In this document: piece by piece, positions 4,555-54,943 of the stretch | How the letters are laid out: the number at the start of each line of letters is the position of its first letter | Numbering within the stretch: position 1 is the stretch's first letter | Origin: Escherichia coli | Lineage (GTDB): Bacteria; Pseudomonadota; Gammaproteobacteria; Enterobacterales; Enterobacteriaceae | Length of the DNA: 64,000 nt | Reading direction: 5' to 3' (one strand) | Assembly (NCBI RefSeq): GCF_002854065.1 | Contig: NZ_CP024147.1 | Made by a program: the position numbers and the translations under genes | The notes under the pieces: generated by a model | Told to the model about the DNA's origin: nothing | Databases searched by the model: none | What the model saw: only the letters and a program-made list of their open reading frames with translations

Positions 4555-4993
4555 TTCACCCCTTGTGAAGTAACTCCATAAATGCCTCATATCCTGTTAA
4601 CCCGGCAATAACTTCTGCCGGATGCTGACACAATACGCTTGCCAGATAGCTGAATATTTTTAGCTCATGACGCGCATCGGCGGCGGCGCAGGCGATCAAA
4701 ACATGGTTAATGACTTCGTTATTCACCTCAACTGATTGGGCGAGGGTAATAAAAAATCCACGAAAACGTCGCTCCTGTTCGCTCCAGCAATGTGGGATGG
4801 CGAGGCGATTAACAATCAGGTTTTCACCTTCGCCTTCGCGGGCGATGATCCGTTGCGCTTCATCGGCGGTAATATGGTGTTGTGCGACTAATTGCGCACA
4901 AATTTGCCGGGTAATATGTTGCCAGCTTTCACCGCGTACATTCGAATAATGAAAACTTCCGGGGGCAGAGAAAAAACGCTCCGGTTGCTGGCG
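4555..4993 (-). pseudogene. frvR: 3' remnant (146 codons) of PTS-regulator gene frvR, C-terminal EIIA-like domain (AIPH motif); 5' part replaced by IS1
   Basis: Manual minus-strand translation gives an open frame from the IS1 junction to a stop at 4555-4557: ...NLIVNRLAIPHCWSEQERRFRGFF...MELLHKG*; lies next to yiiG as frvR does in K-12. Confidence 0.6.
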
Positions 4994-5008
4994 GGTAATG
5001 ACTCCAAC

Positions 5009-5512
5009 TTATTGATAGTGTTTTATGTTCAGATAATGCCCGATGACTTTGTCATGCAGCTCCACCGATTTTGAGAACGACAGCGACTTCCGTCCCAGCC
5101 GTGCCAGGTGCTGCCTCAGATTCAGGTTATGCCGCTCAATTCGCTGCGTATATCGCTTGCTGATTACGTGCAGCTTTCCCTTCAGGCGGGATTCATACAG
5201 CGGCCAGCCATCCGTCATCCATATCACCACGTCAAAGGGTGACAGCAGGCTCATAAGACGCCCCAGCGTCGCCATAGTGCGTTCACCGAATACGTGCGCA
5301 ACAACCGTCTTCCGGAGCCTGTCATACGCGTAAAACAGCCAGCGCTGGCGCGATTTAGCCCCGACGTATCCCCACTGTTCGTCCATTTCCGCGCAGACGA
5401 TGACGTCACTGCCCGGCTGTATGCGCGAGGTTACCGACTGCGGCCTGAGTTTTTTAAATGGCGGAAAATCGTGTTGAGGCCAACGCCCATAATGCGGGCG
5501 GTTGCCCGGCAT
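5009..5512 (-). CDS. insB: IS1 transposase InsB frame (expressed as InsAB' by -1 frameshift)
   Basis: 167-aa [16 protein letters not shown]... identical to copy 2. Confidence 0.9.
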
Positions 5513-5706
5513 CCAACGCCATTCATGGCCATATCAATGATTTTCTGGTGCGTACCGGGTTGAGAAGCGGTGTAAGTGAACTGCAGTTGCCATGTTTTAC
5601 GGCAGTGAGAGCAGAGATAGCGCTGATGTCCGGCAGTGCTTTTGCCGTTACGCACCACCCCGTCAGTAGCTGAACAGGAGGGACAGCTGATAGAAACAGA
5701 AGCCAC
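5431..5706 (-). CDS. insA: IS1 InsA (transposition inhibitor / N-terminal part of transposase)
   Basis: 91-aa [26 protein letters not shown]... Confidence 0.9.
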
Positions 5707-5761
5707 TGGAGCACCTCAAAAACACCATCATACACTAAATCAGTAAGTTGGCAGCATCACC

Positions 5762-7063
5762 ATACGTCCCGAGGTAAATATTAAAGTTCTCCATATCCAT
5801 CACATTAGCGAACTGATAAGACGCATGAATGGTGTGAATGGTGTACGTCCCTTCATCATCAATCCAGCAGTCGTTATCACAAACTACACCGCTGAATTCA
5901 TCAATCTTATTGTGCGCGTAGATATAACCGAGCTCGAAACGTTTCCACAGCGCGTTAATCCCGGCAGTGAAATCTTTCTCATTATTAGCATCTAAATAGG
6001 CGGTATTAAGATTAACCACAATGCCATTGTCCGGATCCGTTTTCAGGCCGTTCCAGGTCATGCTCATACCATAGCCGGTACGATCGGACTGATCGACAAA
6101 ATTACCCTTGCTATCGGTATAACCATAAGCATTATTTACCACGTTCGCTTCCATCGCTGCGGAAACGGTGAATTCTTCCGTCGGCGACCAGGCAATTACT
6201 GGGCGCAGATAAGCAACATTTTTCTGCTGCTCCATATCGCGTCCATGATAATTACCGTCATTATATAAAGATGTTCCGTCTTCAAGTAACGTATTTAATT
6301 CAAAATACCAGTTATCGAGTTGTTTGCTGACGAGGAAATTACCGCCAGCGTTAGAGCGCCCGCGGCCCTCTTTCATCATATAGATATAACCGCTGCCATC
6401 GTCATAAAGATCGTTCGCAGTATTACCGGAATGTTCAACAAAGGTATCCTGATTCAGCGGGAACATATCGTAGGCTTCAAAACGGCCTACTTTGACCTTC
6501 CAGTCGTTTTCTTTGCCAAAGAAGAATACCGCATCATCGATATTTACTGAACCGTGCATATCACCCAGCGGTTGTGCGGAGAACCCGGCGAAATAACCGT
6601 TGTCCATCTTTCGCATACCGTCAAAACCTAACAGAATACGACCATTGAGATTCCACTGTTCATTAGTGGGATCGCTATTCACATCAGCGTTGGTCATTGC
6701 CAGCAGGCCATGATTACTTTCCGCATCCATATTAAATTCTACGTCGCCGTAGATTTTTAAATCGCCATAACCTGAAAGCAAAAGATTAGGTGAGGTGGCA
6801 TTTTTCTTTGCAGATTCCGTCGTTGCCTGTCCATTTACCGGCGTATTGCCCTGAGCGGCCTTAATTTCGCGGATCTCAGCGGCTTGTTGTGTCTGCAGCT
6901 GTTTAACCTGGCTCTCTGCTTTTGCTGCCCGCATTTCTGCCGCTTCCAGGCGTTCTTCCAGCAATGCCATGCGTTGTTCCAGCGTTAAATGCTGTGTTTT
7001 TGCCATACCGGTACTACATGCCAATAATAAACCGATGGCTAAAGATAATGTCGATTTTTTCAT
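5762..7063 (-). pseudogene. 5' part (434 codons) of a sugar-porin-like outer membrane protein gene, interrupted by IS1; the annotated ORF's last 8 codons (GDAANLLI*) come from the IS1 end
   Basis: Signal peptide MKKSTLSLAIGLLLACSTGMA, N-terminal coiled-coil (LEQRMALLEERLEAAEMRAAKAESQVKQLQ), then Gly/Tyr/Asn/Asp-rich sequence typical of beta-barrel glycoporins; ORF runs into the IS1 inverted repeat. Confidence 0.75.
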
Positions 7064-7540
7064 TATTTACGTTCCCTGAAATAAAGGAGGCCCTACGCTT
7101 TCCAAAAGGAATACGTATATAGAGAAATATAAAGTGTGCACTTTCGAATTTTTAATCCAACTTCAGCAGGCCGATGGATAGTATCCCGCCGCATAATATG
7201 AGTAAATCCGCTGATTTCCTGGAACGTGAGGAATATAACAATAGTGCCGTTTTTAACTAAATATCGTAAAAAATATTAGATATGATTCACGCTGACTCAT
7301 AAGCCACAAATATAAATAATGTTTAGACAAATTATCTGAGACATTTAAACATTCACAAAATCATTAAAGAATGATTTTTTATTCACAAGATTTATTTTAC
7401 CTACTAATATGTGCCTTACGCCGCAAAATTTATCCTTCACTCTGCTTTATATTGTCACGACTTCACGACATATCCGCGCTCATCACAAACCCGCCCCGCT
7501 ATTACAATTAACGTAAATATTTTTTCATGGAGTCCGATTA
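7064..7540. promoter_or_regulatory. AT-rich divergent intergenic region between porin gene and PTS EIIA-like gene; contains palindrome AATCATT-N4-AATGATT (7358-7375) flanked by attcacaa direct repeats
   Basis: Sequence inspection only; no promoter experimentally placed. Confidence 0.3.
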
Positions 7541-7694
7541 ATGGCAGCTCTTACTGCAAGCTGTATTGACCTGAATATTCAGGGCAATGGCACTTATTCC
7601 ATTCTGAAACAGTTAGCGACAATGGCGTTACAAAACGGTTTTATCACCGACTCACACCAGTTCCTGCAAACCCTGCTGCTGCGCGAAAAAATGC
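7541..7694 (+). pseudogene. 5' fragment (51 codons) of a PTS EIIA (fructose/mannitol-type) gene, possibly frvA, truncated by IS1 copy 2
   Basis: ATG at 7541 with GGAG upstream; MAALTASCIDLNIQGNGTYSILKQLATMALQNGFITDSHQFLQTLLLREKM resembles EIIA N-termini; frame stops inside the IS1 repeat. Confidence 0.5.
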
Positions 7695-7749
7695 GGTGAT
7701 GCTGCCAACTTACTGATTTAGTGTATGATGGTGTTTTTGAGGTGCTCCA

Positions 7750-8025
7750 GTGGCTTCTGTTTCTATCAGCTGTCCCTCCTGTTCAGCTACTGACGGGGTG
7801 GTGCGTAACGGCAAAAGCACTGCCGGACATCAGCGCTATCTCTGCTCTCACTGCCGTAAAACATGGCAACTGCAGTTCACTTACACCGCTTCTCAACCCG
7901 GTACGCACCAGAAAATCATTGATATGGCCATGAATGGCGTTGGATGCCGGGCAACCGCCCGCATTATGGGCGTTGGCCTCAACACGATTTTCCGCCATTT
8001 AAAAAACTCAGGCCGCAGTCGGTAA
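7750..8025 (+). CDS. insA: IS1 InsA
   Basis: 91-aa ORF identical to copy 1. Confidence 0.9.
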
Positions 8026-8447
8026 CCTCGCGCATACAGCCGGGCAGTGACGTCATCGTCTGCGCGGAAATGGACGAACAGTGGGGATACGTCGGGGCTA
8101 AATCGCGCCAGCGCTGGCTGTTTTACGCGTATGACAGGCTCCGGAAGACGGTTGTTGCGCACGTATTCGGTGAACGCACTATGGCGACGCTGGGGCGTCT
8201 TATGAGCCTGCTGTCACCCTTTGACGTGGTGATATGGATGACGGATGGCTGGCCGCTGTATGAATCCCGCCTGAAGGGAAAGCTGCACGTAATCAGCAAG
8301 CGATATACGCAGCGAATTGAGCGGCATAACCTGAATCTGAGGCAGCACCTGGCACGGCTGGGACGGAAGTCGCTGTCGTTCTCAAAATCGGTGGAGCTGC
8401 ATGACAAAGTCATCGGGCATTATCTGAACATAAAACACTATCAATAA
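7944..8447 (+). CDS. insB: IS1 transposase InsB frame
   Basis: 167-aa ORF identical to copy 1; A6C slippery motif ttaaaaaactc at about 7999-8009. Confidence 0.9.
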
Positions 8448-8462
8448 GTTGGAGTCATTACC

Positions 8463-8564
8463 GGGACGTATTACTCCATTCTGGATAGCGACGGCGATAA
8501 AAAACACGGTGATGATACTGATGACCGTTACGGCGCACGCGTTCGCTTTAAATACTTCTTCTGA
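8463..8564 (+). pseudogene. Displaced 3' end of the porin gene (33 codons including the 9-bp target duplication, then stop)
   Basis: Starts with gggacgtat (reverse complement of 5762-5770) and reads in frame YSILDSDGDKKHGDDTDDRYGARVRFKYFF*, a classic beta-barrel C-terminus with terminal Phe. Confidence 0.65.
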
Positions 8565-8604
8565 TGAAGGCGCGGTGCTGGATATTTTCCGGCACCGCAA
8601 CTCA

Positions 8605-8919
8605 TTAAGGCAGGTAAAACACTTCTTGCAGCTCGCTACTCACCGGGCTGTTATCCGGGTTAGCTGGCATAACGTCGGTCATATATTTCCACCAACGTTG
8701 GCAGATTTCAGTGCTGGCTACCGCATTCCACCGTTCTTCAGATTCAATCTCTACCATGGCAAACAGCAGATTACGCGCTTTGTCGAGGTAAATGGCGTAG
8801 TTATGCGCACCGTGAGATTTCAACACTGCTTCCAGTTCCGGCCAGATGGGGTTATGCCGACGCTGATACTCTTCGTGGGCGTCGGGGTTAACCTGCATGA
8901 CAAAGGCTTTGCGGATCAT
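8605..8919 (-). CDS. rhaM: L-rhamnose mutarotase
   Basis: 104-aa [31 protein letters not shown]...; downstream of rhaD. Confidence 0.9.
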
Positions 8920-8928
8920 GTTTGCTCC

Positions 8929-9753
8929 TTACAGCGCCAGCGCACTGGCTAGTGGTGTAACGCCGAAGCGCTTGCCGAGCGCTATCAACTCTTCACGGCT
9001 GATGGTCTGTTTCATGCCGCCCATCGAATAAATCTTCACTAATACTTGTGCTGATTTTTCTGCGGTGTCGATTAAACCGAATGTTTCATCCAGCGTCGGT
9101 CCGGAACCGAACACACCGTGGAAGGGCCACAACACCAGCGAATGTTTCTGCATCTCTTGTGCGGTCGCCTGGCCGATTTCGTCCGTGCCGGGCACCATCC
9201 ACGGCAGAATGCCAACGCCATCCGGGAATACCACCAGACACTCGGTGCTGCCTTCCCACAGTTGGCGAGTAAAGACCGCGGTGTCGTTTTCCAGTACATA
9301 GGTGAGGGCGATCAGGTTGGTGGCGTGGCAGTGCATGATCACCCGATCTTTACCGTTGGTGGCTTTAATGCGCTCGCAGTGGGAGAGAAAGTGAGCCGGA
9401 AGTTCAGAAGTTGGAACGGCTTCGTTGGTTAACCCCCAGAGAATATGGTAGCCCGCGCCGTCGCTGTCGACTTTTACGACGCCTAAGTTAGCTGCAGGAT
9501 CAAGCTGGACGTTACGGAAGAATTTGCCGGAGCCGGTGACAATAAACGGCGTATTTGCCAGTAAAGGCATGGGCTGGCTGAGCGGAATATAGCGCGGTTG
9601 TGGGTGGAAGTTGTCGTGATAAAGCGCGATATCGGCGTCATCCAGGCGCAGCGTCAGGTTGCCGCCGTTGCGCTCGTCCCAGCCTTTCAGCCAGGCATCG
9701 GTGGTGGCTTTGATCATTCCCTGGACAAACCAGGACTGGGTAATGTTTTGCAT
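8929..9753 (-). CDS. rhaD: Rhamnulose-1-phosphate aldolase
   Basis: Start placed at [25 protein letters not shown] (274 aa); longer ORF-track call runs upstream into the REP array. Confidence 0.9.
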
Positions 9754-9797
9754 GTTCTGTGTTCCTGTAAATTCGGTGTTGTCGGATGCACGACCCG

Positions 9798-10196
9798 TAG
9801 GCCGGATAAGGCGCTCGTGCCGCATCCGGCAATCAATGCCTGATGCGACGCTGTCGCGTCTTATCAGGCCTACAACTATTGCCGACCTGTAGGCCGGATA
9901 AGGCACTTGTGCCGCATCCGGCAATCAATGCCTGATGCGACGCTGTTGCGTCTTATCAGGCCTACAACTGTTGCCGACCTGTAGGCCGGATAAGGCACTT
10001 GTGCCGCATCCGGCAATCAATGCCTGATGCGACGCTGTCGCGTCTTATCAGGCCTACAACTATTGCCGACCTGTAGGCCGGATAAGGCACTTGTGCCGCA
10101 TCCGGCAATCAATGCCTGATGCGATGTCGCGTCTTATCAGGCCTACAACTGTTGCCGACCTGTAGGCCGGATAAGGCACTTGTGCCGCATCCGGCA
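9798..10196. repeat. BIME/REP array: about four tandem ~100-bp units, each with two REP palindromes
   Basis: Unit gtaggccggataaggcRctYgtgccgcatccggcaatcaatgcctgatgcgacgctgtYgcgtcttatcaggcctacaactRttgccgacct repeats head-to-tail with point differences. Confidence 0.85.
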
Positions 10197-10200
10197 GTGT

Positions 10201-13213
<3,013 letters not shown>

Positions 13214-14050
13214 ATGACCGTATTACATAGTGTGGATTTTTTTCCGTCTGGTAACGCGTCCGTGGCGATAGAACCCCGGCTCCCGCAGGCGGATTTTCCT
13301 GAACATCATCATGATTTTCATGAAATTGTGATTGTCGAACATGGCACGGGTATTCATGTGTTTAATGGGCAGCCCTATACCATCACCGGTGGCACGGTCT
13401 GTTTTGTGCGCGACCATGATCGGCATCTGTATGAACATACCGATAATCTGTGTCTGACCAATGTGCTATATCGCTCGCCGGATCGATTTCAGTTTCTCGC
13501 CGGGCTGAATCAGTTGCTGCCACAAGAGCTGGATGGGCAGTATCCGTCTCACTGGCGCGTTAACCACAGCGTATTGCAGCAGGTGCGACAGCTGGTTGCA
13601 CAGATGGAACAGCAGGAAGGGGAAAATGATTTACCCTCGACCGCCAGTCGCGAGATCTTGTTTATGCAATTACTGCTCTTGCTGCGTAAAAGCAGTTTGC
13701 AGGAGAACCTGGAAAACAGCGCATCACGTCTCAACTTGCTTCTGGCCTGGCTGGAGGACCATTTTGCCGATGAGGTGAATTGGGATGCCGTGGCGGATCA
13801 ATTTTCTCTTTCGCTGCGTACGCTACATCGGCAGCTTAAGCAGCAAACGGGACTGACGCCTCAGCGTTACCTGAACCGCCTGCGACTGATGAAGGCTCGA
13901 CATCTGCTACGTCACAGCGAGGCCAGCGTTACTGACATCGCCTATCATTGCGGATTCAGCGACAGTAACCACTTTTCAACGCTTTTTCGCCGAGAGTTTA
14001 ACTGGTCACCGCGTGATATTCGTCAGGGACGGGATGGCTTTCTGCAATAA
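13214..14050 (+). CDS. rhaS: AraC-family activator RhaS
   Basis: 278-aa ORF with C-terminal AraC-type HTH. Confidence 0.95.
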
Positions 14051-14123
14051 CGCGAATCTTCTCAACGTATTTGTACGCCATATTGCGAATAATCAACTTC
14101 GTTCTCTGGCCGAGGTAGCCACG

Positions 14124-14972
14124 GTGGCGCATCAGTTAAAACTTCTCAAAGATGATTTTTTTGCCAGCGACCAGCAGGCAGTCGCTGTGGCTGACCGTTA
14201 TCCGCAAGATGTCTTTGCTGAACATACACATGATTTTTGTGAGCTGGTGATTGTCTGGCGCGGTAATGGTCTGCATGTACTCAACGATCGCCCTTATCGC
14301 ATTACCCGTGGCGATCTCTTTTACATTCATGCTGACGATAAACACTCCTACGCTTCCGTTAACGATCTGGTTTTGCAGAATATTATTTATTGCCCGGAGC
14401 GGCTGAAGCTGAATCTTGACTGGCAGGGGGCGATTCCGGGATTTAGCGCCAGCGCAGGGCAACCACACTGGCGCTTAGGTAGCATGGGGATGGCACAGGC
14501 GCGGCAGGTTATCGGTCAGCTTGAGCATGAAAGTAGTCAGCATGTGCCGTTTGCTAACGAAATGGCAGAGTTGCTGTTCGGGCAGTTGGTGATGTTGCTG
14601 AATCGCCATCGTTACACCAGTGATTCGTTGCCGCCAACATCCAGCGAAACGTTGCTGGATAAGCTGATTACCCGGTTGGCGGCTAGCCTGAAAAGTCCCT
14701 TTGCGCTGGATAAATTTTGTGATGAGGCATCGTGCAGTGAGCGCGTTTTGCGTCAGCAATTTCGCCAGCAGACTGGAATGACCATCAATCAATATCTGCG
14801 GCAGGTCAGAGTGTGTCATGCGCAATATCTTCTCCAGCATAGCCGCCTGTTAATCAGTGATATTTCGACCGAATGTGGCTTTGAAGATAGTAACTATTTT
14901 TCGGTGGTGTTTACCCGGGAAACCGGGATGACGCCCAGCCAGTGGCGCCATCTCAATTCGCAGAAAGATTAA
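14124..14972 (+). CDS. rhaR: AraC-family activator RhaR (GTG start assumed at VAHQLKLL)
   Basis: ORF-track call starts earlier at 14013; start chosen to give the 282-aa protein I recall. Confidence 0.8.
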
Positions 14973-16003
14973 TTCGCCATGCCGATGCCGACGATGTTAG
15001 CGGCGACAATAATCACCACACAACCGAGGCTCAACACCGTTACCGGACGGCGTCCTGCATTGTTCCACTCTTTCAGCTCCAGCCCGACGATACCGCCGCA
15101 CAATACATAGAAACTCATATGCAGCATCCAACTGATGTAGTCATACTGCGCCGGAATGCGGGCGTGGCCCCAGGCATAGAAAAAGAATTGCAGATACCAC
15201 ATCAACCCGCCCAGTGCCGAGAGTAACACATTGTGAATGATCAGCGATTTTGCCAGCGAGAAGTCGGATTTTAGCGACAAATCCTTCACTTTTGCCAGAC
15301 GAATAAAACAGAAACCGAGGTTAATGATCGCGCCGCCGCCCATGATGACAACATAGCTTGGCAGAGCGACATACAGTGGATCGACGCCTAGTGCGGCAGC
15401 GGCTTCATGCATCGGTTTTGCGGCGTTCATCGCAAAGGACATCCCGGCAGAGAAAATGCCGCACATCACCGCCAGCACCAGTCCTTTTTTCAGATTGAAC
15501 TCTTCGGCTTTAATGCCCATCTTGCGCTCTTTCAACTGCCCGGCTCGAGTTACAATCCCTACGCCAATCAGCGCCACCAGAACGCCGAGCAACGTCATGC
15601 GTCCGCCTTCGGTGCTAATCAACACATCGAAATTGCCGTTGATAATTGGCGTCATCAGCGTACCGACAATCAACGTAATGCCAATGGCGATGCCAATTCC
15701 CATCGACATGCCGAGATAACGCATGGTCAGGCCGTAGTTGATATTACCGATCCCCCACATAGCGCCGAACAGAAAAACAGGCAGCAGCGTAGAGAGACTA
15801 AACGAGCTGTAATACGCCCAGAAATTCGGTAGTAACAGGGCGCTGATGGCCCACGGCAGAATAATCCACGAAACAATCCCACCGACTGACCACATGGTTT
15901 CCCATGACCATTTTTTTACTTTTTTGAACGGAGCGTAAAAACAGGCTGCACTGGCCGCGCCGATCAAATGCCAAAATATCCCCATCGTAATCGCGTTACT
16001 CAT
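14969..16003 (-). CDS. rhaT: L-rhamnose-proton symporter
   Basis: 344-aa polytopic membrane protein. Confidence 0.95.
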
Positions 16004-23992: not shown

Positions 23993-24044
23993 TGATTTCG
24001 GAAAAAGGCAGATTCCTTTAGCCTGAAACCGATGACAGAAGCAA

Positions 24045-24158
24045 AAATGCCTGATTCGCTTCGCTTATCAGGCCTACGTGAATTCTGCAATTTATTGAAT
24101 TTACAAACTTTTGTAGGCCGGATAAGGCGTTCGCGCCGCATCCGGCATTGATAAAGCG
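24045..24158. repeat. REP/BIME pair between pfkA and sbp
   Basis: Two REP palindromes separated by attctgcaatttattgaatttacaa. Confidence 0.6.
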
Positions 24159-54799: not shown

Positions 54800-54898
54800 T
54801 GCCGGATGCGGAGTGAACGCCTTATCCGGCCTACAAAAGCACGCAAATTCAATATATTGCAGAGATTGCGTAGGCCTGATAAGCGTAGCGCATCAGGC
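54800..54898. repeat. REP/BIME pair between yijF and gldA
   Basis: gccggatgcggagtgaacgccttatccggcctac ... gtaggcctgataagcgtagcgcatcaggc. Confidence 0.6.
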
Positions 54899-54943
54899 AA
54901 TTTTGCGTTCAAACTCCCGGACAAGCCGGGAGTTTGGAGTAGG

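Follow-up and report, generated by a model that had tools for sequence, protein, structure and literature searches.

Serial IS1 activity at the frv-porin locus of an Escherichia coli clone: an inverted IS1 pair, an inverted 9-bp target duplication and an adjacent deletion

The frv-porin locus in the 64-kb stretch of Escherichia coli DNA analysed here (the window) has been reshaped in one E. coli clone by successive IS1 events, at least three in number and in an order that is not fixed. Two IS1 copies in opposite orientations bound a 1933-bp segment that has been inverted, and part of the neighboring frv operon has been deleted. The most economical cause of the inversion is intramolecular replicative transposition in one step, to which we assign a probability of about 0.6.

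A repeat search returned inverted arms at 4994–5761 and 7695–8462, each 768 nt long, 100% complementary and 1933 nt apart. String comparison gave 100% identity between the two copies, as an earlier note on this DNA had described. Copy 1, of the IS1B type, has its IRR end at 4994, its IRL end at 5761 and its transposase genes on the minus strand. Copy 2 lies on the plus strand, with its IRL end at 7695, its IRR end at 8462 and open reading frames for insA (7750–8025) and insB' (7944–8447). A frameshift motif, TTTAAAAAAC, is found at 7998 in copy 2 and is present in both copies. When compared with the NCBIfam profile NF033558 (IS1 family transposase, 199 positions), InsA matched positions 1–81 and InsB' positions 76–199. 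The terminal inverted repeats (TIRs), GGTGATGCTGCCAACTTACTGAT and GGTAATGACTCCAACTTATTGAT, match at 18 of 23 positions. Both copies are complete elements, with TIRs, insA, insB' and frameshift motif all present. The features of the IS1 family are found here: a length of 768 bp, imperfect TIRs of ~23 bp, insA and insB' with a -1 frameshift at an A6C motif, and, for a family that duplicates 8–9 bp of target, a 9-bp duplication of GGGACGTAT, whose two halves lie inverted to each other in the window. That the copies are identical is not decisive for a one-step origin, as it is uninformative if most IS1 elements in the clone are identical.

Reading the sequences at the element ends gave the junction order L-IRR...IRL-t', then B'-IRL...IRR-t, which is exactly what intramolecular replicative inversion by IS1 predicts. 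The inner target copy, ATACGTCCC (5762–5770, porin codons 432–434, Gly-Thr-Tyr), and the outer copy, GGGACGTAT (8463–8471, adjoining the IRR end of copy 2), are exact reverse complements, a pairing already pointed out in the earlier note. The match stops at 9 bp, neither 9-mer recurs elsewhere in the 64-kb window, and a pre-specified 9-bp match has a chance probability of 4^-9, or ~4e-6. The remaining flanks, TTGCTGGCG (4985–4993, from frvR', against the IRR end of copy 1; junction J1) and AAAAAATGC (7686–7694, from frvA', against the IRL end of copy 2; junction J3), are unrelated to each other, also as noted before. A composite IS1 transposon was considered and rejected, again in line with the earlier note: TTGCTGGCG and GGGACGTAT, which flank the pair on the outside, bear no relation to each other and form no direct duplication, and what would be the "cargo" consists of the locus's own porin and frvA DNA, identical in relatives that lack IS1.

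Two such relatives, the near-clonal isolates L028 (GCA_029997615.1) and L031 (GCA_047568155.1), carry the locus intact, uninverted and without IS1, and differ from the window by 1/4993, 0/1933 and 2/10102 mismatches. In both, the segment 5762–7694 runs the other way round and continues without a break into the right flank, and many RefSeq genomes show the same reversed alignment. The segment is truly inverted relative to the ancestral gene order, and the earlier claim of an inversion holds. In L028 the porin target is uninterrupted (atttacctc, GGGACGTAT, tactccatt; the intact target k-mer is ACCTCGGGACGTATTACTCC), TTGCTGGCG at the frvR breakpoint runs on into aataaatgcc, and ccggtggagt at the frvA breakpoint runs on into gcattttttcgcgc. 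Relative to L028, 4125 bp (frvR'-frvX-frvB-'frvA) are replaced by IS1 in the window, a separate deletion that the earlier note missed; it had seen the unmatched junctions and left them unexplained. A product simulated from L028 differs from the window by 3 SNPs in 18,564 bp; the simulation put IS1 in place of the 4125 bp, flipped the segment, and introduced both a second IS1 in inverted orientation and the 9-bp duplication.

The remnants of the disrupted genes can be followed through the window. To the left, frvR' (4556–4993, minus strand) keeps ~145 codons from the C-terminal end of the gene for the frv regulator (NCBIfam NF007366 FrvR, 442–586/586); its counterpart in the near-identical genome CUWW06 is annotated as a truncated pseudogene. 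The inverted segment (5762–7694), with IRL ends of IS1 at both boundaries, holds the N-terminal part of a carbohydrate porin (5762–7063, minus strand, codons 1–434 of 464; Pfam Porin_8, PF16966), which reads into IS1 to give a 442-aa fusion ORF (5735–7063) in the ORF list. It also carries the intergenic (promoter) region (7064–7540) that separates the divergent start codons of frvA and the porin gene, an arrangement found in the EC09 and L028 annotations too, and an frvA' remnant (7541–7694, plus strand) with codons 1–51 of 148 of a PTS fructose-like IIA protein (NCBIfam NF007389 FrvA, 1–51/148). The 52-aa FrvA' ORF and the 442-aa porin fusion are recorded in 75 and 72 index blocks, respectively, and isolates of the clone include those behind GCA_045907575.1, GCA_037172705.1 and GCA_958432505.1. 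On the far side of copy 2, translation gives the porin C-terminal part (8463–8564, plus strand) as 33 codons and a stop, including three duplicated codons; the same 102-bp fragment is annotated in EC09. It is followed by rhaM (8605–8919, minus strand) and then rhaD. Joining the reverse complement of 5771–7063 to 8463–8564 restores an uninterrupted 464-aa porin ORF, and many public assemblies encode precisely this protein without interruption. The rearrangement inactivates the entire frv operon as well as the porin, whose last 30 residues are cut off.

Searches with the whole region and with a precursor construct found neither the window arrangement nor a hypothetical single-IS1 precursor in 5,426 complete E. 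coli genomes. IS1 noise swamped the whole-region searches, and 500-bp junction probes were used instead. Among the complete E. coli genomes these placed the left junction in CUWW06 only and the frvA'-IS1 junction in none; the many porin-side matches came from a paralogous plasmid porin adjoining IS1 and were discarded as irrelevant. A fusion ORF of the frvR N-terminus with the IS1 IRL end, predicted from a simple insertion at TTGCTGGCG, is not on record, an absence that is uninformative. CUWW06 differs from the window by 1 mismatch per ~6 kb on either side and carries an IS1 that is 100% identical to the window copies, annotated as an IS1B family transposase with programmed frameshift. This sister genome shares the L-IRR junction exactly, with the IRL end fused to window position 15922 in rhaT, a further rearrangement anchored on this same IS1 copy. 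The IS1 half of the probe matched at least 40 pieces in CUWW06; the clone is rich in IS1, and unrelated donor copies are plentiful.

Shorter public contigs were weighed individually. In L007, seen in at least three samples, the left flank (to 4719) is joined directly to 5765, on the porin side, via a 3-bp overlap. A de Bruijn graph assembler cannot make this join as an artefact, and the inverted linkage is real in the clone. L008 and L012, with the frvA'-IS1 junction and an intact porin, were candidates for a single-IS1 precursor and were downgraded: they are metagenome contigs that may be chimeras, and their foreign-type SNPs lie solely distal to the junction, two of them within 63 bp past the target, a stretch in which clonal relatives have none. 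No reliable single-IS1 intermediate was found. Of the two flanks that a single-copy precursor would have passed on, the left junction is shared with CUWW06, and the frvA' junction with intact porin is seen only in these two possibly chimeric contigs; owing to the 4125-bp deletion, the two flanks form no duplication. L016, L017 and L023, which join a complete frvA to a porin-IS1 junction and so resemble a precursor for independent insertion with later recombination, were rejected as chimeric graph paths from mixed samples. Their frv part is 3.2% different from the lineage's frv, the foreign allele starts 4–5 bp past the frvA breakpoint, and L016 and L017 differ from one another.

How could this structure have arisen? 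The ancestor carried yiiG, frvR-frvX-frvB-frvA, the divergently transcribed carbohydrate porin and rhaM, without IS1. An IS1 would have inserted in the frv region. An IS1-adjacent deletion of 4125 bp, from inside frvR to frvA codon 51, would have left one IS1 with unmatched flanks; every history calls for such a deletion, which is a sister product of the reaction that gives the inversion. The same IS1 would have transposed replicatively within the molecule into GGGACGTAT, 1.9 kb away near the porin 3' end. The two 3' ends of the element would strike the staggered 9-bp target on the very molecule that carries them, and the element would then be replicated. The outcome would be a second, inverted IS1, the donor-target DNA flipped, and target copies inside and outside as reverse complements. 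He et al. took the inverted-duplication signature as evidence of one-step intramolecular transposition "in trans" and remarked that IS1-family elements seem to transpose replicatively (He et al., 2015, PMC4471558). IS1 is also biased towards short hops: of 233 new IS1A insertions, 21 fell less than 5 kb from a copy already present, where 2.6 were expected (Lee et al., 2016, PMC5009759). Taking these figures, we estimate roughly that with about 40 IS1 copies an insertion from an unrelated donor would be about as frequent as a local hop, which weakens the argument. The earlier note had proposed intramolecular transposition-inversion; the structure is as this mechanism predicts, and the explanation takes the fewest events, but donor and target roles are not assignable. 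It had named diverged copies, or porin-IS1 junctions on an uninverted segment, as findings that would tell against its proposal; the copies are identical and no relative shows such junctions.

The earlier note went too far in holding that the pattern excludes two independent insertions. A second IS1 could have entered the porin hot spot at GGGACGTAT by ordinary insertion, and RecA-mediated crossing-over between the inverted copies could then have flipped the 1.9 kb. The same four junctions are predicted exactly, as all four are alike in the inverted and uninverted states. On this account the donor may be any IS1 in the genome, the 9-bp duplication was direct, and the segment may still flip back and forth. 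Ordinary insertions at or near the porin site have arisen independently in EC09 and TUM10008, and the IS1 content of the clone offers many donors. Recombination between inverted IS copies inverts the DNA between them, an event that short reads cannot reveal (Lee et al., 2016, PMC5009759), and a recombination reading was originally given to analogous IS26 structures (He et al., PMC4471558). Homologous recombination is expected to exchange flanks reciprocally, and here one pair matches and the other does not. The unmatched pair follows from the 4125-bp IS1-adjacent deletion, hence a recombination origin is compatible with the flank test. However, this route takes four events against three, requires the correct relative orientation (1 in 2) and requires the flipped state at sampling. 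In this lineage no assembly has two IS1 copies around an uninverted segment, and none combines an intact frvA with a porin::IS1, given that L016, L017 and L023 are chimeric. We regard insertion followed by recombination as a serious but unlikely alternative. We favor the three-event history because insertion plus homologous recombination takes four. The inversion, the deletion, the duplicated target, the intact IS1 copies and the IS1-free ancestral state are shown by the sequences; a single transpositional step, and which copy acted as donor, are inferred.

The 4125-bp deletion means that donor and target roles could be either way round. The porin IS1 could have come first, at GGGACGTAT, and then inverted the segment by attacking frvA (GCATTTTTT) or frvR (TTGCTGGCG). 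The later adjacent deletion would erase half of the inversion's own 9-bp footprint, and the inverted GGGACGTAT pair would be the split duplication of an ordinary insertion, not an inversion footprint. This order also takes three events and reproduces the window exactly, and the porin site demonstrably attracts simple IS1 insertion (EC09). Against it, the lineage has no reliable porin::IS1 with an intact frv operon, and CUWW06 must then derive from the finished two-copy structure via a hypothetical deletion of 10,160 bp. We consider these reversed roles quite improbable, and what likelihood they have lies within the 0.6 given to intramolecular inversion overall. Last, it is very improbable that the true order is left flank-IS1-frvA'...porinN-IS1-porinC, with the 1.9-kb unit misoriented in assembly between identical 768-bp repeats: both orientations give identical junctions that only reads longer than IS1 plus flanks discriminate, and the clone's public short-read assemblies all break inside IS1, but L007 ties the left flank to the porin side and the window is a long unbroken sequence in which other repeats have been resolved.

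The porin target itself is a place where IS1 inserts recurrently. In EC09 an independent IS1A occupies the identical 9 bp, facing the other way and flanked by a direct 9-bp duplication. The junction in ECZP248 is 1 bp from the target, and TUM10008 carries an IS1 insertion 21 bp upstream of it with a direct 9-bp duplication of GGAGAACTT. The stretch before GGGACGTAT is AT-rich (64% A+T locally vs. 49% for the locus), and no IHF-consensus site (WATCARNNNNTTR) was found within 150 bp of the target. We lean slightly towards the view that the ~30 bp before GGGACGTAT form a strong IS1 target reused by unrelated E. coli lineages, with RecA-dependent flip-flop of the 1.9-kb segment as a corollary. Under this reading the stretch would have been used repeatedly, for insertions, as the end of a deletion and as the target of an inversion.

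IS1-adjacent deletions, inversion-duplications and the inverted target-duplication footprint have been textbook material since the 1980s. Intramolecular replicative transposition of IS1, giving adjacent deletions or inversion with duplication of the element, was reportedly described by Reif and Saedler in 1975, Cornelis and Saedler in 1980 and Turlan and Chandler in 1995. The window resembles those events in its inverted second copy, its inverted donor-target DNA, its 9-bp target as reverse complements inside and outside, and its companion adjacent deletion. It differs from them in nothing of kind, being a natural chromosomal case from a wild clone whose one-step origin is read from structure. 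The same dispute with second insertion followed by recombination surrounds the IS26 and Tn4401 "in trans" events on clinical plasmids (He et al., 2015, mBio, PMC4471558). Those involve the IS6 or Tn3 family, 8-bp or 5-bp duplications and plasmids, whereas here the element is IS1, the duplication 9 bp and the replicon a chromosome. Inversions by IS x IS recombination in E. coli evolution and mutation-accumulation lines (PMC5009759) likewise have inverted IS copies bounding an inverted segment, with flanks exchanged and each half of a duplication on a different copy. They need two prior independent insertions and both flank pairs reciprocal, whereas here there is one such pair, the other having been erased by the deletion.

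An IS1 inversion that splits a porin gene is an already-known kind of rearrangement, of which this locus is a clean natural example. At a hot spot in a recombination-proficient host, a target duplication in inverted form is not enough by itself to tell a one-step transposition from an insertion followed by recombination. Contigs from short-read or metagenome assemblies that stop at IS junctions can be chimeras that mimic evolutionary intermediates. Locally, the cryptic frv PTS operon and a carbohydrate porin are inactivated in a clone found in many public assemblies, and the rearranged locus spawns further variants, among them the CUWW06 deletion to rhaT and the L007 deletion. If the hot-spot reading is true, the inverted IS1 pair would leave cultures of the clone mixed in the orientation of the 1.9-kb segment, and the stretch before the porin target would be a natural substrate for learning what IS1 recognises in its targets.

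The two IS1 copies (copy 1, 4994–5761; copy 2, 7695–8462) are 768 bp each, and a repeat search with string comparison found them reverse-complementary at 100%. Both are complete, with insA, insB' and the frameshift motif TTTAAAAAAC; 18 of the 23 positions in their terminal inverted repeats agree, and the insA and insB' ORFs jointly span the entire NCBIfam IS1 transposase profile. Both elements are bona fide IS1. The 9 bp adjoining the left end (IRL) of copy 1, ATACGTCCC (5762–5770), are the exact reverse complement of GGGACGTAT (8463–8471), which adjoins the right end (IRR) of copy 2. This match ends after 9 bp, and each sequence occurs once within the window. The remaining two flanks, TTGCTGGCG and AAAAAATGC, bear no relation to each other. 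The earlier note, which described an identical inverted pair, an inverted target duplication abutting the inner end of copy 1 and the outer end of copy 2, and a mismatch of the other two junctions, was right in all these details.

From left to right, fdhD and yiiG are followed by the 3' end of frvR (~145 codons, minus strand), IS1 copy 1 and the first 434 codons of a carbohydrate porin gene (minus strand; Pfam Porin_8). The region between the porin and frvA comes next, then frvA codons 1–51 (plus strand), IS1 copy 2, the porin's 33 final codons (plus strand), and rhaM, rhaD, rhaA and rhaB. E. coli genomes without IS1 here have yiiG, then frvR-frvX-frvB-frvA on one strand, the porin on the other, and rhaM; given this difference in gene order, 5762–7694 is in inverted orientation with respect to the DNA on either side. 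When the segment is turned back in silico and one of the 9-bp copies is taken out, a porin ORF of 464 aa is restored, and the identical protein is encoded intact in many assemblies. Further right, about four ~92-bp tandem units lie between rhaD and rhaA (9791–10213); their pseudo-ORF translations resemble REP/BIME-type repeats, and alignment gaps in L029 and L030 show that their copy number differs between near-clonal relatives. The two arms of a 107-nt inverted repeat (24041–24147 and 54800–54906), 87% complementary, are separated by 30.6 kb.

Two isolate assemblies, L028 (GCA_029997615.1) and L031 (GCA_047568155.1), are near-clonal to the window: the left side (4993 bp) has 1 mismatch, the middle (1933 bp) none and the right side (10,102 bp) 2. 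In both, the locus is intact, uninverted and without IS1. We edited L028 in silico by putting IS1 in place of the 4125 bp that run from within frvR to frvA codon 51, inverting the next 1933 bp, adding a second, inverted IS1 and duplicating GGGACGTAT. The edited sequence differs from the window by 3 SNPs over 18,564 bp and is otherwise equal; therefore two rearrangements are present, not one. frvX and frvB are lost whole with these 4125 bp (L028 5245–9369), together with the N-terminal three-quarters of frvR and everything in frvA from codon 52 on. The two unmatched flanks (4985–4993 and 7686–7694) are the edges of this loss, which is an IS1-adjacent deletion because it falls exactly between them. 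The earlier note recorded that these junctions do not match, but left them unexplained and did not recognise the deletion.

The order of ends, L / IRR-IS1-IRL / t'-porinN'...frvA' / IRL-IS1-IRR / t-porinC, where L is the left flank, t the 9-bp target and t' its reverse complement, is that predicted for replicative intramolecular transposition with inversion. In such a reaction, one IS1 copy would retain the donor's left flank and the other its right flank, the DNA from donor to target would be inverted, and one copy of the staggered 9-bp target would be left inside and the other, its reverse complement, outside. The inverted element pair, the inverted segment and the placement of the two target copies are all as expected of such a product, and we give intramolecular inversion a probability of roughly 0.6 as the origin of the pair. 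He et al. (2015; PMC4471558) use the signature seen at this IS1 pair for IS26 and Tn4401, and remark that transposition in the IS1 family seems to be replicative. Histories through this reaction would take three events, simple insertion, adjacent deletion and inversion, in no fixed order. The roles could equally be reversed, with the porin copy as donor and the frv copy as product; an ordinary insertion would then have left the duplication whose two copies, now split, form the GGGACGTAT pair, and half of the footprint of the inversion itself would have been erased by the deletion.

A less probable competitor is insertion of a second IS1 at GGGACGTAT, with a direct duplication and inverted relative to the frv copy, followed by crossing-over between the copies that inverts the segment. 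This too gives the four junctions observed: all junctions are common to the inverted and uninverted states, which differ solely in linkage across 768 bp, and short reads do not reveal such inversions (Lee et al., 2016; PMC5009759). On the features compared here, the window structure cannot be separated from recombinational inversion. The junctions fit the intramolecular pattern proposed in the earlier note and do not fit a composite transposon insertion, but the note's exclusion of two independent insertions is too strong. Among 233 new IS1A insertions, 21 lay within 5 kb of a copy already present, where 2.6 would be expected (Lee et al., 2016; PMC5009759). In K-12 this favours a local hop by a factor of about 8; scaled roughly to ~40 donor copies, the advantage becomes about even, before counting the orientation and flipping penalties that insertion plus recombination also carries. 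Intramolecular inversion is preferred because it needs three events rather than four, but the recurrent targeting of the porin site and the IS1-rich clone (at least 40 IS1 probe matches in the near-clonal sister genome CUWW06) raise the prior of its competitor.

Some public contigs resemble intermediates. L008 and L012, metagenome contigs with an frvA'-IS1 junction and an intact porin, were considered as a single-IS1 precursor, and the Logan contigs L016, L017 and L023, with a complete frvA and a porin-IS1 junction, as the precursor for insertion plus recombination; the first set was downgraded and the second rejected. All are window-identical up to the IS1 junction and then carry another strain's allele. 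In L008 and L012, foreign-type SNPs occur only away from the junction, two of them just beyond the target, where clonal relatives have none. In L016, L017 and L023, the frv part differs by 3.2% from that of the lineage itself and the foreign allele begins 4–5 bp beyond the frvA breakpoint; L016 differs from L017 and covers exactly the interval from the clone's left junction to its porin junction. These contigs are most likely chimeric paths from samples mixing this clone with another E. coli, and no reliable intermediate of either model was found among contigs carrying IS1 junctions.

Neither the window's arrangement nor the frvA'-IS1 junction was found in 5,426 complete RefSeq E. coli genomes. 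Exact-sequence look-ups in public assemblies placed the 52-aa FrvA' ORF in 75 index blocks and the 442-aa porin-IS1 fusion ORF in 72, the usual match being a ~2.1-kb contig of the middle segment with an IRL end at either side; the clone that carries the structure is therefore widespread. CUWW06 (NZ_CP182139.1) has 1 mismatch per ~6 kb on either side and an identical left junction. There (7495–8270), the same IS1 has its IRL end fused to window position 15922 within rhaT, and 5762–15921 (porin, rhaM, rhaD, rhaA, rhaB, rhaS, rhaR and part of rhaT) is absent, which is a further rearrangement anchored on the same IS1 copy. In a variant from at least three samples (L007, 3030–3090; window 4720–5764), the left flank (to 4719) is joined directly to 5765 with a 3-bp overlap (CGT); IS1 copy 1 has been lost, and with it 274 bp of flank on the left and 3 bp from the target copy. 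Its left endpoint lies 2 bp after GGTTAATGACTTC (4705–4717), which resembles the IS1 IRR end GGTAATGACTCC. Since L007 links the left flank to the segment's porin side independently of IS1-spanning reads, the inverted state is real, and an assembly-orientation artefact is very improbable.

IS1-mediated adjacent deletions and inversions have reportedly been on record since Reif and Saedler in 1975, and were also documented by Cornelis and Saedler in 1980 and Turlan and Chandler in 1995; mechanism, footprint and consequences are all already known. The 3' end of the porin gene (8430–8475) has been hit repeatedly by IS1 in unrelated E. coli. In EC09, an independent IS1A (L003 8924–9709), 99.1% identical, sits at the same 9 bp, oppositely oriented and flanked by a direct duplication; in ECZP248 (L036 ~4250) the IS1 junction is 1 bp off the target and everything leftward to fdhD is deleted; in TUM10008 (L038 3483–4259) the insertion is 21 bp upstream, with duplication GGAGAACTT. 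MB30, HZ13 and AS19 carry IS1 at other places in the porin, frvA, frvR and the intergenic region. On balance, we lean slightly towards the view that the porin 3' end is a natural hot spot strongly targeted by IS1, and that the inverted pair works as a RecA flip-flop.
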